Source of the DNA: Catellatospora sp. KI3
GTDB taxonomy: Bacteria; Actinomycetota; Actinomycetes; Mycobacteriales; Micromonosporaceae
Assembly: GCF_029948125.1 (NCBI RefSeq)
Contig: NZ_JASAMB010000002.1
Span: 262,479-326,478, forward strand
DNA: 64,000 bases
Reading direction: 5' to 3'
Numbering within the stretch: the stretch's first letter is position 1; each line of letters starts with the position of its first letter. Shown here in pieces: positions 3,825 through 63,003 of this stretch. The notes under the pieces were generated by a model. It ran no database searches, was not told where the DNA came from, and was given only the letters and a program-made list of their open reading frames with translations. The position numbers and the translations under genes are program-made.

Positions 3825-3869
3825 CCTACCTGGAGGGCGGATCATCTATGCCCGTCCTCTAGGTAGGCC
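3825..3869. repeat. Dispersed palindromic repeat, family B copy 1 (short form)
   Basis: AGCCTACCTGGAGG-(20 nt)-CCTCTAGGTAGGCC. The 3' half TCCTCTAGGTAGGCCAGTGTCGAT closely matches copies at 27616-27679 and 62938-63003. Confidence 0.6.
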
Positions 3870-4017
3870 AGTGTCGATGCGTCGCGGAAGGCGCGACCGT
3901 GCGGAGTGCGGTAGCCGGCGACGGACGGAGTAGGAGTGCCCCGGCCGGCGACGGACGGAGCGGTGTCGATGGCGGTGGGGTGGGCGGCGGTGGGGTGGGC
4001 CGGGGTGGGGCTGCGGG

Positions 4018-4302
4018 TCAGAGTGGGCCGCGGCCGGCGCGGAGGAGGAGCAGGGCGAGCTGGGCGCCGTCCGTACCGAGCTCGGCGCGGAAACGGTCCA
4101 TGATCTCGCGTTCGCGGCTGAGGACCAGCCGCGTGCCGCCCGAGGCGACCCGGACCCGGCCGACCTGCTGCGAGATCGCGGCGCGCTCCTGCCACAGTGC
4201 GATGAGCGCGGCGTCGATGGCGTCGATGCGCTCCCGCATCGACGTGATCTCGGCGGCGGCCTCCGGCGCTGCGGTGCCGGTCTGCTGGGCGATGGCACTC
4301 AT
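4018..4302 (-). CDS. Chorismate mutase (small AroQ-class, about 94 aa)
   Basis: Size and sequence (ERIDAIDAALIALWQERAAISQQVGRVR...SREREIMDRF) are typical of monofunctional AroQ chorismate mutases. Its position next to uvrD1/pcrA mirrors mycobacterial Rv0948c-Rv0949. Confidence 0.75.
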   Translation of the reverse strand: MSAIAQQTGTAAPEAAAEITSMRERIDAIDAALIALWQERAAISQQVGRVRVASGGTRLVLSREREIMDRFRAELGTDGAQLALLLLRAGRGPL

Positions 4303-4351
4303 GAGTTACTCCTCGGTGGGATCGTCGCTCGTCGGGTGCCCCGGGCAGAAG

Positions 4352-4384
4352 AAAAGCCCCGGGCTCGTCGAGCCCGGGGCTTTT
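4352..4384 (-). terminator. Rho-independent terminator hairpin (GCCCCGGGCTCGTCGAGCCCGGGGC) with A/T-rich flanks
   Basis: Perfect 10-bp stem with 5-nt loop, followed by a T-run on the minus strand. Lies downstream of the minus-strand 5'-nucleotidase gene. Confidence 0.6.
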
Positions 4385-4536
4385 CGTCAGGTCTGCTGCT
4401 CAGTCAGGCGCGACCTACGGCTGCCGGGGCTCCGGAGCCATAGGTAAAGTAGAACGCCTGCTTGATCACGTCGCCAAGTATGCCACGGATGCCCGCCGAC
4501 GCAATCGAGCCGACCATCATGTGAGAGCCGTCCTGC

Positions 4537-58743: not shown

Positions 58744-58859
58744 CAAAGCTGCGGGTGGCGCGCGGGTAGGAAAGGGAAGGAGGGGGACGAGGGGGCGGAG
58801 TAGGGTGGGCGCAGGACCCCGCACCTTTCTGGCTGCGGGGCGATTCGGCGTGGCCGAAC

Positions 58860-61800
58860 GTGGAAGGCGTACCCGTGAACCTCACCGGACTGCTCGAAGC
58901 CGCTCTCACCGACCCGGCGCTGGCCCGTACCGCACAACTGGCCCGGACCGAACCGGAGCTGGACCTGACCGCGCCCGCCTCGGCCCGGCCGTTCCTGGTC
59001 GCCGCGGCCGCGGCCGCGCGCCCGCTGCTGGTGGTCACCGCGACCAGCCGCGAGGCCGAGGACCTGGCCGACGCGCTCGGCGCGTTCGTCGACCGGGACA
59101 CCGTCGCGGTCTACCCGGCCTGGGAGACGCTGCCGCACGAGCGCCTGTCGCCGCGCTCGGACACCGTCGGCCGCCGCCTGGCCGTGCTGCGCCGCCTGGC
59201 CCACCCCGCGGACGCCGGACCGCTGCGCATCGTCGTCGCGCCGGTCCGCAGCGCACTTCAGCCGCAGCTCAAGGGCCTGGGCGACCTGAACCCGATCGAC
59301 CTGCGCCCCGGCGACTCGGCGCCGCTGGACGAGCTGACCCACACCCTGCACGACCTCGCGTACGCCCGCGTCGACCTGGTGACCAAGCGCGGCGAGTTCG
59401 CGGTGCGCGGCGGCATCCTCGACGTCTTCCCGCCCACCGACGAGCACCCGTCCCGGGTCGAGTTCTGGGGCGACGAGGTGGAGGAGATCCGCACCTTCGC
59501 GGTGGCCGACCAGCGGACCATCGACAAGGTCGACCGGCTGTGGGCGCCGCCGTGCCGCGAGCTGCTGCTCACCCCGGACGTGCGGGCCCGCGCGGCGCGG
59601 CTGGCCGCCGACCACCCGGCGCTGGAGGAGATGCTGACCAAGCTCGCCGAGGGCATCCCGGTCGAGGGCATGGAGTCGCTGTCCCCGGCGCTGCACGCGG
59701 GCGGCGACAGCATGCAGCTGCTGCTGGACTGCGTACCGGCGGAGACGCTGGTGCTGCTGGCGGATCCGGAGCGGATCCGCACCCGCGCCCACGACCTGGT
59801 CCGGACCTCGGCGGAGTTCCTGGAGGCGAGCTGGGCCGCGGCCGCCGTCGGCGGCAAGGCCCCGATCGACCTCGGCGCCGCCGCCTTCAAGACCCTCGCC
59901 GAGGTACGGCAGCACGCCGCCGACCTGGGCCTGCCCTGGTGGACGGTGTCCCCGTTCGGCCTGGTGGAGACCGAGCGCCCGGCCGGGGCGGCCGACGAGC
60001 CGTGGCTGGACGCGCCCGAGGTGCACGTCGCCCCGGACACCGCCACCGTGCTGACCTGGGCCGCCACCCAGCCGCAGCTGTACCACGGCGACACCGCGAA
60101 GGTGCTCGCCGACCTGCGCGGCTGGCTGGCCGAGGGGTGGCGGGTGGCGCTGGTCTTCGAGGGCCACGGCCCGGCCAACCGCTCCGTCGAGGTGCTGCGC
60201 GACGCGGGCCTGGGCGCGGTGCTGGTCGACGAGATCGCCGACGTCCCGCCGCCGAACCAGGTGCTCGTCTCCTGCGGCCCGCTGCGGCAGGGCCTGGTCG
60301 CACCGGGTGCGAAGCTGGCCGTGGTCACCGGGTCGGAGATCTCCGGCGGGCGCGGCAGCGCCACCCGCGAGCTGGGCCGGATGCCCTCGCGCCGGCGCAA
60401 CACCATCGACCCGCTGGAGCTGCGCGCGGGCGACTTCGTGGTGCACGAGCAGCACGGCATCGGCAAGTACGTCGAGCTGGTGCAGCGCAAGGTCAACGGC
60501 GCCGACCGGGAGTACCTGGTCATCGAGTACGCCTCCAGCAAGCGCGGCCAGCCCGGCGACCGCCTGTTCGTGCCCACCGACGCCCTGGACCAGCTGTCGC
60601 GCTACGTCGGCGGCGAGCAGCCGACCCTGCACAAGATGGGCGGCGCGGACTGGCAGAAGGCCAAGGCGCGCGCCCGCAAGGCGGTCAAGGAGATCGCCGC
60701 GCAGCTGATCCAGCTGTACGCCGCGCGCCAGGCCGCGCCCGGCCACGCGTTCGGCCCCGACACGCCCTGGCAGCGCGAGCTGGAGGACGCGTTCCCGTAC
60801 CAGGAGACGCCGGACCAGCTGTCGGCGATCGAAGAGGTCAAGGCCGACATGGAGAAGACGGCCCCGATGGACCGGCTGATCTGCGGCGACGTCGGCTACG
60901 GCAAGACCGAGATCGCGGTACGGGCGGCGTTCAAGGCGGTGCAGGACGGCAAGCAGGTCGCCGTGCTCGTCCCGACGACGCTGCTGGCCCAGCAGCACTA
61001 CAACACGTTCTCCGACCGGATGGCGCAGTTCCCGGTGGTGCTGCGGCAGCTGTCGCGCTTCGCCACCCCGAAGGAGGCCGAGGAGACGCTGGCGATGACG
61101 GCCGACGGCCGCGCCGACATCGTCATCGGCACCCACCGGCTGATCCAGAAGAGCACCCGGTTCAGCAAGCTCGGGCTGGTCATCGTCGACGAGGAGCAGC
61201 GGTTCGGCGTCGAGCACAAGGAGCGCCTGAAGGAGATGCGCACCAACGTCGACATGCTGAGCATGTCGGCGACGCCGATCCCGCGCACCCTGGAGATGTC
61301 GATCACCGGCATCCGCGAGATGTCCCAGATCACGACGCCGCCGGAGGAGCGCCACCCGGTGCTCACCTACGTCGGGGCGTACGACGACAAGCAGGTCGCC
61401 GCCGCGATCCACCGCGAGCTGCTGCGCGACGGCCAGGTCTTCTACCTGCACAACCGGGTCGAGACGATCGACAAGGCGGTGCGGCGCCTGCGCGAGCTGG
61501 TGCCCGAGGCGCGCGTGGTCGCCGCGCACGGCCAGATGGGCGAGGACGCGCTGGAGAAGGTGATGGTCGGCTTCTGGGAGAAGGAGTACGACGTCCTGGT
61601 CGCCACCACCATCATCGAGTCCGGCATCGACATCCCGAACGCCAACACCCTGATCCTGGAGCGGGCCGACCTGCTCGGCCTGGCCCAGCTGCACCAGATC
61701 CGGGGCCGGGTCGGCCGGGGCCGCGAGCGCGCCTACGCCTACTTCCTCTACCCGCCGGAGAAGCCGCTCACCGAGCAGGCGCACGAGCGCCTGGCCACCA

Positions 61801-62447
61801 TCGCCCAGCACACCGAGCTCGGCGCGGGCATGTACGTGGCGATGAAGGACCTGGAGATCCGGGGCGCGGGCAACCTGCTCGGCGGCGAGCAGTCCGGCCA
61901 CATCGAGGGCGTCGGCTTCGACCTGTACGTGCGCATGGTCGGCGAGGCGGTGCAGCAGTTCAAGGGCGGCGGCAAGGGCGAGGAGGAGGCGGCCGAAGTC
62001 AAGATCGACCTGCCGGTCGACGCGCACCTGCCGCACGACTACATCGACTCCGAGCGGCTGCGCCTGGAGATCTACCGCAAGCTGGCCTCGGCCCGCGACG
62101 AGGTGGCGCTGCAGGAGGTGGTGGCCGAGCTGACCGACCGCTACGGCGAGCCGCCCGCCCCGGTGGCGAACCTGGTCGCGGTCGCCAAGCTGCGCCTGGC
62201 CGTGCGGCAGTACGGCCTGACCGAGATCTCGATGCAGGGCCGGCACATCCGGTTCAGCCCGCTCGAACTGCCCGACTCCCGCCAGCTGCGGCTCAAGCGG
62301 TACCACCCCGACGCCGTGTACAAGCAGGTCGCGGGGCAGGTCAGCGTGCCCGTGCCGACCAACCGCCGGGTCGGCGGCGAGCCGCTGCGCGACCAGCAGC
62401 TGCTCGACTGGTGCGTGCAGCTGCTCAAGGACGTGCTCGGCTCATGA
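58860..62447 (+). CDS. mfd: Transcription-repair coupling factor
   Basis: About 1195 aa. UvrB-homology N-domain, RNAP-interacting domain, superfamily-2 translocase with Walker [18 protein letters not shown], and the TRG motif. Confidence 0.9.
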
Positions 62448-62926
62448 CCGTGCGCTGGACCGTGGTGGACACGCCGATCGGCCCGCTGAGCTGCGCGGTC
62501 GACGACCTCGGGCTGTGCGCGCTGCAGTTCGGCAAGCTGGACGTGGTCGTGGACGCCGACCGGCGGCTGGACGCGGTCGCCGGGCAGCTGCACGCGTACT
62601 TCGCCGGGGAGCTGGTCGAGTTCACGCTGCCGGTGTCGGTCCGGCGCGGCAGCGACTTCGAACGGGCGGTGTGGGCGCAGCTGTCGCGCATCCCGTACGG
62701 CGAGACGCTGACGTACGGGGAGGTGGCCCGCGCGATCGGGGAGCCGGACGCGGCGCGGGCGGTCGGCGTGGCCTGCAACCGCAACCCGGTCGCGGTGGTG
62801 GTGCCGTGCCACCGGGTGGTCGGCGCGGGCGGCAAGCTGGTCGGCTTCGGCGGGGGCCTGCCCCGCAAGCGCCAGCTCCTGGAACTCGAAGCCCGCGTCC
62901 GCATGGAGCACGACTGGCTCGCCTGA
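62444..62926 (+). CDS. ogt: Methylated-DNA--protein-cysteine methyltransferase
   Basis: PCHRVV active-site motif and a YGE(V/T)xTYGE-type DNA-binding helix. ATG overlaps the mfd stop (ATGA). Confidence 0.85.
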
Positions 62927-62937
62927 CCCCCGTTCTT

Positions 62938-63003
62938 GAATTGACGCTGGCCTATCCAGAGGACGAAATCGCGAGAATCGTGCTCTAGATAGGCCACCGT
63001 CAA
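62938..63003. repeat. Dispersed palindromic repeat family B, copy 3 (inverted relative to copy 2)
   Basis: GAATTGACGCTGGCCTATCCAGAGGA-cgaaatcgcgagaatcg-TGCTCTAGATAGGCCACCGTCAATG. Confidence 0.7.

Follow-up and report, generated by a model that had tools for sequence, protein, structure and literature searches.

The window, i.e., the whole stretch of 64,000 nucleotides of Catellatospora sp. KI3 that was analysed, contains exactly three core sites of a palindromic element, family B (3823-3869, 27622-27668, and 62949-62995). The assignment to KI3 agrees with two proteins that are 100% identical to those of this strain. Copy 1 (3811-3881) lies in a 983-nt intergenic region between two convergent genes, an oppF-like gene (plus strand, ending at 3034) and the gene for chorismate mutase (minus strand, 4302 to 4018). 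Copy 2 (27602-27686) is located in the spacer that separates folD from a divergent SBP_bac_5 (oppA-like) gene of the minus strand, and ends approximately 73-90 nt before the folD ATG at 27759. Copy 3 (62929-63015) is inverted relative to copy 2 and begins 2-5 nt past the stop codon of ogt (62926), between the convergent ogt (plus strand) and an unknown gene at 63143-63994 (minus strand). The spacer downstream of ogt also holds, outside the repeat, a separate plain GC-rich hairpin that was found by a hairpin scan (GGCGATGGCCGCCGTCCC-GGGC-GGGGCGGCGGCCATCGCC, 63085-63132). It is kept in C. tritici and in TT07R-123, and the equivalent plain terminator hairpin is all that C. paridis has at this site; the hairpin is likely to be the ordinary terminator of the convergent gene pair beside copy 3.

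A preliminary description of this DNA had placed three copies of a dispersed palindromic element at these positions, and alignment confirms them, including the proximity of copy 2 to the folD start and of copy 3 to the end of ogt. With a covariance model (R1) run on the window with filters off, the three sites score 45-75 bits and the next match 15.6 bits. Copies 2 (core GGCCTATC...GATAGGCC; 65 bits) and 3 (74.7 bits) had been described as mutually inverted and about 64 bp long; the inversion holds, while the homology in fact spans about 85 nt (27602-27686 and 62929-63015), and when properly aligned their arms are identical at 49 of 52 positions. Two statements on copy 1 have to be corrected. 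It was taken for a shorter relative; it is diverged, but of full length, with both arms (AGCCTACCTGGAGGGCGG and CCGTCCTCTAGGTAGGCC) and a core AGCCTACC...GGTAGGCC, and it scores 59.1 bits with R1 (nhmmer E = 8e-16). It was also placed upstream of the chorismate mutase gene; since this gene is on the minus strand, copy 1 is actually downstream of it, some 130-150 nt past the stop codon. The GGCCTATCYRGAG motif, allowing up to two mismatches, has 13 matches in the window versus 4.3 +/- 1.9 in shuffled sequences (0 of 100 shuffles reach 13), and the best six of these are the arms of the three copies. Within the window, the 8-mer GGCCTATC/GATAGGCC is confined to copies 2 and 3; it is not scattered outside the elements, and an uptake-sequence-like motif was thus rejected. 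Neither nhmmer nor the covariance model detected extra diverged copies in the window and approximately 480 kb of loci, a weak match in one locus (L021) being a chance hit inside a coding sequence.

Each family B copy is an imperfect palindrome of about 85-90 nt. Its 26-bp stem has an invariant base, GAC-NNN-GGCCTATC, the apex varies, and the core is constant, the GGCC-to-GGCC spacing being fixed at 46-49 nt. The conserved sequence of the basal stem can be written as (R)T(A/C/T)GAC-NNN-GGCCTATC(Y)A. We compared the folding of each copy to that of its own shuffles and obtained z-scores from -4.5 to -7.8, as RNA or as DNA (about -5 to -7 for copy 1). The inner stem and the loop vary among copies, and the self-complementarity of the inner stem is retained. 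In the 26-bp helix, 16 of the 26 pairs are changed on both sides and 88.7% of cells pair, a result matched by none of 500 shuffles, whereas slid controls pair at only 27-41%; a set of 17 sequences is in agreement. Among the C. tritici paralogs arm identity is 87%, compared to 42% for loops, which indicates either a constraint at the sequence level or a homogenisation of the arms.

G·U wobbles show no asymmetry by orientation of the element (14 versus 15), and no transcribed-strand bias is seen relative to the upstream gene (34 versus 27, p = 0.44). This asymmetry test of G·U versus A·C was unbiased in both settings, and a strand-specific RNA was therefore rejected; together with the strong covariation, the lack of strand bias points to a hairpin at the DNA level. 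That the element encodes a short peptide (the MAYLEH...WIGQRQF frames), or is a small RNA in its own right, is extremely improbable. Similar short reading frames do cross copies 2 and 3, the hairpin is stable, and the misleading reading frames on opposite strands that had been pointed out are present (27620-28501, plus strand; 62425-63003, minus strand). However, neither copy 1 nor the copies of C. tritici keep the frame, no codon pattern is seen in the variable centre, and the same "peptide" appears on opposite strands solely as a consequence of the palindromic sequence. Neither a promoter nor a strand bias was found. No Rfam family reaches its gathering score in the window or in the folD leader region, and at a relaxed E-value the matches are only to generic microRNA-precursor hairpins, at most 29 bits versus thresholds of 40-100.

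We also searched for family B beyond the window. A motif search for further copies, proposed in the preliminary description as a test of the family, was successful: in the sister genome of C. tritici there are at least 12 further distinct copies of an approximately 90-nt element with the same extended consensus, a count obtained with a strict pattern that misses diverged copies. As the similarity also withstands proper alignment, the reading of the preliminary description, a dispersed palindromic family, is supported. About 14 relatives are found in high-GC soil metagenome contigs (69-76% GC), which have neither synteny nor homologs in common with the window. These relatives share GACGTTGGCCTATCTA...TAGATAGGCCAACGTC, while their inner stems are entirely different. 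The GGCC is preceded by (G/A)TAGAC in about 8 of the 14 and in some C. tritici copies; this extension is base-paired and not universal. It should be noted that pattern matches in Frankia QA3, Arthrobacter, Nocardia, Streptomyces microflavus, Geomonas, and two MAGs are unrelated or at best remote (different flanks, 25-31 bits). A plasmid or phage origin was rejected, as blastn against plasmid and phage collections gave no match, and a single pattern match in a viral contig has unrelated flanks. Family B probably resides in the Catellatospora core genome, with relatives in other high-GC soil actinomycetes, and its copy number appears to be low, tens per genome.

The copies occur singly and are intergenic at every site examined. 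In Catellatospora, a stop codon is no more than 70 nt away at 14 of 15 sites; the neighbouring genes converge at seven sites, are in tandem at four, and diverge at the folD site only. The metagenome contigs show the same gene-end pattern. Housekeeping genes with no relation to one another flank the copies (ftsZ, ahcY, pepA, metK/priA, and acn among them), and the orientation of the element relative to genes is arbitrary. No transposase domain was found in the 39 flanking proteins scanned, and no cognate transposase, autonomous parent element, or arm-flanked gene in the approximately 0.55 Mb examined. An alignment of the flanks of 17 copies reveals no direct repeat at the borders, i.e., no target-site duplication, and the ends of the element are poorly defined, conservation fading gradually outward.

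A special link to folD is not supported by this placement. A dedicated regulator of folD or of one-carbon metabolism, that is, a leader RNA switch, an attenuator, or a transcription factor operator of a small regulon, could be favoured by the position of copy 2 upstream of the start codon, by the retention of a hairpin at this site in four Catellatospora species, and by other copies near ahcY and metK. Nevertheless, we consider it highly improbable: folD is the sole promoter-side site among about 15, the others following stop codons, and the neighbouring genes are otherwise unrelated in function, observations on which an operator with its regulon was rejected. The arbitrary orientation also argues against it, as does the absence of an Rfam match and of a consensus promoter. 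Furthermore, the sequence at the folD site diverges strongly between close species, with only 36 of 52 (C. tritici) and 33 of 52 (TT07R-123) arm positions of the KI3 copy matching those of its positional orthologs.

Comparison of orthologous sites reveals both persistence and turnover. All three window copies are positionally shared with C. tritici, and two with TT07R-123. At the chorismate mutase site, family B is present in KI3, C. tritici (L033, 3384-3430), and TT07R-123 (L034, 3335-3381), and three other Catellatospora genomes have a third palindrome family. The same third family occupies the ogt site of C. methionotrophica and L032; at that site, family B is found in KI3 and C. tritici (L018, 1481-1551), and TT07R-123 has a different palindrome. 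At the folD site the spacer around the element is about 90% conserved, and the close match of the KI3 arms to those of the KI3 ogt copy includes shared mismatches. A simple new insertion was never observed, only replacement at occupied sites. These alignments show that the copies have been inherited vertically over long periods. They also show that copies can be overwritten or replaced: the KI3 folD copy bears arms of the ogt type, and the sites of other species hold unrelated palindromes or none.

Could the hairpin be selected by the host? Under such a model it would, at the ends of genes, either bind a host protein (a factor of the nucleoid, of topology, or of replication) or form a barrier at transcript 3' ends or an atypical terminator working in both directions, its spread and uniformity being due to gene conversion and not to transposition. 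The placement just past stop codons, often between convergent genes, agrees with this model, as do the invariant basal stem conserved in distant genomes, the much better conservation of arms than of loops (arm conservation across paralogs would fit a host-selected cis-element as well), the persistence of copies at the same three sites in the sister species, the presence of some other strong hairpin at these sites in other species, and the change of the KI3 folD copy, which resembles an arm conversion. Conversely, only tens of genes, without a common function, carry the element, and the ogt site of C. paridis lacks it. On neither strand is the stem followed by a U tract, the T run being 5' of it; in the 17-copy alignment the consensus 3' of the stem is ATGCTAAG or ATnnAAA, which is not the T/U run of an intrinsic terminator. 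A scan for consensus promoters and terminators found none inside the elements, nor any terminator at them, and ordinary terminators of the A-run/GC-hairpin/T-run type are used elsewhere in the genome, one of them beside copy 3. A transcribed-strand bias of G·U wobbles is likewise absent. We regard a host cis-element as unlikely, yet deserving serious consideration. Intrinsic (rho-independent, including bidirectional) terminators share with family B a strong hairpin just past stop codons, often between convergent genes. They differ from it in the T run after the stem, and the family B stem has a sequence common to unrelated loci; at about 56% G+C and 26 bp or more, this stem is poorer in G+C and much longer than the ordinary terminators of the KI3 genome.

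Family B closely resembles the REP/REPIN-RAYT systems of Pseudomonas, E. coli, and Stenotrophomonas, i.e., short extragenic palindromes in many dispersed copies, whose arms are conserved and whose central spacer is poorly so, with compensatory changes preserving a long hairpin, placement after genes, long vertical persistence, and different families at the same intergenic sites of related genomes. Family B consists of such dispersed extragenic palindromes with conserved arms and a compensated hairpin. The GTAGAC or ATAGAC starts of some of its relatives recall the GTAG head of REP, which can serve as a lead only. Family B differs in that no RAYT or other Y1/HUH gene is linked to it, the copies apparently number tens and not hundreds, each unit forms one long hairpin whose basal stem is invariant instead of two recognisable REPs each with a small palindrome, and the host is an actinomycete. 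By term search, the main text of a survey of RAYT groups (PMC5581495) does not mention Actinobacteria. Like family B, the MITE-type repeats (Correia of Neisseria, ERIC/IRU of enterobacteria, RUP/BOX of pneumococci) are non-coding and lie between genes, as imperfect palindromes of about 70-150 bp whose inverted arms are long; they are transcribed together with their neighbours, and orthologous sites may have or lack them. However, family B has neither target-site duplications nor sharp terminal inverted repeats, its conservation peaks in the middle of the arms and not at the tips, and no related insertion sequence is known. The attC sites of integrons, recognised as a folded single strand, likewise have a stem that is conserved at its base and varies at its apex. 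In family B the order of the core is reversed (GTTGGCC...GGCCAAC versus RYYYAAC...GTTRRRY), and the copies are solitary, with no cassette arrays and no integrase gene nearby; they are not attC sites.

We conclude that family B is probably one of the non-coding, interspersed palindromes of the REP/REPIN/MITE type, belonging to the Catellatospora core genome and with relatives in high-GC soil actinomycetes. From the frequency of compensatory changes and the absence of a favoured strand, we infer that the element would act as a DNA hairpin or cruciform. Its invariant basal stem may be the recognition site of a sequence-specific protein, the likeliest partner being, by analogy with REP elements and RAYT tyrosine (HUH) transposases, an enzyme that copies or homogenises family B. 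Effects on neighbouring genes would then be a by-product: a stable hairpin at the 3' end of a transcript could be a decay barrier or a pause site, and the folD element would be a passenger in the leader/promoter region and not a dedicated regulator.

A more specific proposal can be made only tentatively, and we would not expect it to hold in full: a REPIN-like partnership in Actinomycetota, in which an enzyme or binding protein that is specific for the hairpin, conserved, and inherited vertically maintains, and occasionally overwrites, a small set of hairpins at the ends of genes, with new copies preferentially landing in or converting sites already occupied by a palindrome. Possible marks of such a partnership are the invariant base GAC-NNN-GGCCTATC, the fixed core of 46-49 nt, and an apex that varies freely yet is always paired, and preferential landing in or conversion of occupied sites would explain the different palindrome families at the same sites across Catellatospora species.

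Small palindromic repeats are well studied in proteobacteria; for Micromonosporaceae, no description of such repeats was found in Rfam or the searchable literature. As it stands, family B is an undescribed member of a well-known class of small bacterial palindromic repeats, and an ordinary repeat family. It is a hazard for annotation, since spurious ORFs of 293 and 192 codons arise from it across folD and ogt, and it could pass for a folD leader. It is also an example for comparative work, combining strong compensatory evolution, a stem base strictly conserved across distant genomes, and site-level turnover of several palindrome families. If the stem base does have a dedicated protein partner, the long-term association of host and element of the REP/RAYT type would extend to actinomycetes.

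Family B, the palindromic element under study, has exactly three copies in the window, and its occurrence is real and well beyond chance. Copies 1 (3811-3881), 2 (27602-27686) and 3 (62929-63015) are alignable along their entire length. The half-motif GGCCTATCYRGAG, with two mismatches allowed at most, had 13 matches in the window compared to 4.3 ± 1.9 in shuffled sequences, and the six top-ranking matches were the six arms of the three copies; the exact 8-mer was found at no other place in the 64 kb. A covariance model of the family (R1), built on 32 members and run on the window without filters, scored 45-75 bits at the three copies and no more than 15.6 bits at all other positions, and the count of three copies follows from this gap. 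The preliminary description was thus correct in calling family B a dispersed palindromic element, given the full-length alignment, the R1 scores and the further copies in Catellatospora tritici. However, its estimate of about 64 bp is too short, since copies 2 and 3 are homologous across approximately 85 nt, and copy 1, taken for a shorter half-copy, turns out to be a full-length, though diverged, member with both arms.

Each copy forms a single long hairpin, with stability far above that of shuffled versions (z-scores of -4.5 to -7.8 with RNA energies and -4.5 to -7.7 with DNA energies). Across the 32 sequences, 88.7% of cells in the 26-bp helix were paired, and two-sided changes were detected at sixteen pairs; this covariation was matched by none of 500 shuffles (0/500), pairing in slid controls was only 27-41%, and the 17 Catellatospora copies alone gave the same outcome. 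GAC and GGCCTA-C, and the bases with which they pair, are invariant. Among the C. tritici paralogs, arm identity was 87% compared to a loop identity of 42%, which argues that the arm sequence itself is held constant, beyond the demands of pairing alone. The G+C content of the element is 47-56%, compared to 72% for the genome. G·U wobbles were evenly distributed, both by element orientation (14:15) and relative to the nearest upstream gene (34:27, p = 0.44). Because they are equally frequent on both strands, nothing points to a strand-specific RNA, and a small RNA gene is a poorly supported explanation; such symmetry is consistent with a hairpin or cruciform of DNA, or with the use of both strands. 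Neither a consensus promoter nor a hairpin-plus-T-run terminator was found in the elements scanned.

The gene context was obtained with a Pfam scan, which identified mdh and mfd in addition to the genes next to the copies. Copy 1 is located between the oppF-like ATPase gene (end at 3034) and the chorismate mutase gene (4302 to 4018); because the latter is on the minus strand, copy 1 lies downstream of it, at a distance of about 130-150 nt, in a convergent-gene spacer, and not upstream, as had been stated. The chorismate mutase/oppF spacer (3035-4017) is 983 nt long in Catellatospora sp. KI3 compared to 190-335 nt in five related genomes, and the extra DNA is a repeat pile-up that includes, alongside copy 1, a 9-nt tandem array (3214-3355), two 80-nt hairpin units (3405-3484 and 3517-3596) and a palindrome with a 25-bp stem (3564-3621). 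Copy 3 starts 2-5 nt past the ogt stop codon (62926), also in a convergent-gene spacer, and its reported position after ogt stands. Copy 2, the sole window copy between divergent genes, lies 73-90 nt before the folD ATG (27759), in agreement with the approximately 80 nt given earlier. Two ORFs, 27620..28501 (+) and 62425..63003 (-), begin inside family-B elements; they are palindrome artefacts, as suspected, and a small peptide gene is likewise poorly supported. On the other side of the folD spacer, about 400 nt of non-coding DNA (27133-27530) upstream of the SBP_bac_5 (oppA-like) gene (25504-27132, minus strand) is near-invariant in four Catellatospora species, a conservation far exceeding that of the remaining spacer; this region has no Rfam match and no consensus promoter, and the opp-type operon may have a conserved leader or a regulatory region here. 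The window also contains two paralogous sets of opp-type ABC transporter genes, at 583-3019 and 21377-23847, which are inverted relative to each other and share 72-86% of their nucleotides across about 2.4 kb. Another repetitive segment, at 52386-53064 within ORF 51437-54031, consists of long, in-frame tandem repeats with units of 18 and 30 nt that encode a Pro/Ser/Glu-rich repetitive protein segment.

Ogt and chorismate mutase encoded in the window show 100% identity to proteins of Catellatospora sp. KI3 (Micromonosporaceae). Window DNA is 93-96% identical to that of C. tritici, in which a pattern scan (one genome per species) matched 16 loci, corresponding to 12 distinct copies once duplicated scaffolds were removed. 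Four locus pairs, L006/L011, L010/L020 and L019/L024 (scaffolds 2 and 14) and L003/L012 (scaffolds 6 and 1), have identical elements and flanks of at least 100 nt, suggesting scaffold redundancy in the assembly or duplications that are large and recent; each pair was counted once. The extended consensus of the C. tritici copies is CCCCGyTTTnnATyGACGCTGGCCTATCYAGAGGACG, a variable 13-15 nt, and CGTCCTCTRGATAGGCCAGCGTCrATGCTAAGnGGGG. The KI3/C. tritici alignment breaks (at about 21223-21296, 34630-34658 and 58656-58797) exactly at three of the four copies (21229-21297, 34571-34639, 41942-42010 and 58681-58749) of a second palindromic family (GCAGTTTCGGGGAAAGTGCACGAA...TTCGTGCACTTTCCCCGAAACTGC), and at these points the C. 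tritici sequence is 100-600 nt longer or is different. In metagenomes, a looser pattern recovered about 14 clearly palindromic relatives, on contigs of 69-76% G+C, that retain (R)TAGACGTTGGCCTATCTA...TAGATAGGCCAACGTCTAY, the GGCC-to-GGCC span being 46-49 nt, and that differ completely among themselves in inner stem and loop. In Frankia sp. QA3, repeated hairpins GCCTATCCAGAGGGATAAATC...CCCTCYRGATAGGC (L007, 3597-3641; L008, 2821-2865) have the CTATCCAGAGG core in common with family B, but not the flanks, and score 28-30 bits with R1; these hairpins could represent a repeat family of Frankia's own, or else a remote relative. Searches of plasmid and phage collections revealed no family-B copy, and no examined locus contained a second one.

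At 14 of the 15 distinct Catellatospora sites, a stop codon is found within 70 nt. Convergent genes flank seven of the sites, tandem genes four, and divergent genes only one, that of folD; in the other three, the far-side gene is beyond the end of the examined locus. The special link to folD is therefore not borne out, and a dedicated folD regulator is poorly supported. The metagenome relatives have the same placement pattern. The slightly asymmetric ends of the element are found in either orientation relative to the adjoining genes. The main rival to a repeat is a host-selected cis-element, in which gene conversion would maintain the uniformity of a hairpin that binds a protein or of an atypical structure at transcript ends. 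Several observations speak against this rival. A U tract and strand bias are absent. Ordinary terminators of the genome (a classical A-run/GC-hairpin/T-run) occur alongside the elements, one of them adjoining copy 3. The element is carried by few genes, which are unrelated housekeeping genes (ftsZ, ahcY, manA, pepA, an AsnC regulator, acn, metK/priA and gltD among them), and C. paridis lacks it downstream of ogt, where only a plain terminator hairpin is present.

Across species, the contents of these sites point to turnover. Downstream of ogt, family B is found in KI3 and C. tritici, and different palindromes in TT07R-123 (CCAAGATCAGCCAAGTTGCC...) and in C. methionotrophica and locus L032 (GCCGCAACTCTTAAAGACTTGCGG...). 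Downstream of chorismate mutase, family B is present in KI3, C. tritici and TT07R-123, the copy of the latter being of the consensus type, and three other Catellatospora genomes have a palindrome of the GCAACTCTT... family; no genome without a repeat was seen. The unrelated, lineage-specific repeats at these two sites map to about 3505-3600 (L029), 3500-3570 (L031, L032) and 3340-3420 (L035-L037), with CCAAGATCAGCCAAGTTGCCGGGCAATCGGGC... in TT07R-123 and GCCGCAACTCTTAAAGACTTGCGGCC... in C. methionotrophica and others. Thus, at two independent sites one family occupies one clade and another family a second clade. By a rough copy-number estimate, random insertion of a few dozen copies among thousands of spacers would be very unlikely to give this arrangement, which implies preferred sites, or replacement where a palindrome is already present.

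Upstream of folD, family B is present in KI3, C. tritici and TT07R-123; C. methionotrophica has only a short degenerate hairpin, and no different palindrome was seen. The variant inner arms (GGCCTATC-TCGTCGAC...) common to C. tritici and TT07R-123 are probably ancestral, because, of the two sister genomes, TT07R-123 is the less closely related. The arms of the KI3 folD copy are identical to those of its ogt copy, 35 kb away, at 49/52 positions, with three internal mismatches in common, compared to only 36/52 and 33/52 for its positional orthologs, and its loop is unlike both. Probably, a paralog replaced the sequence of the KI3 folD copy after the KI3/C. tritici split, and this replacement could have occurred via gene conversion or re-insertion.

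The interpretation with the best support places family B among the interspersed palindromic repeats of REP/REPIN/MITE type. Neither a transposase nor an autonomous parent was found in the sequence examined, no transposase is among the adjoining genes, and no target duplication was found at the element borders. Family B would act at the DNA level; its invariant stem base is probably recognised by a sequence-specific protein, for which an enzyme copying or homogenising the family is the most plausible candidate. Family B is absent from Rfam, and no description of it was found in the searchable literature; it is new, within a familiar class of bacterial repeats. Its noteworthy features are a stem base conserved across distant genomes, and palindrome families that turn over at fixed sites.
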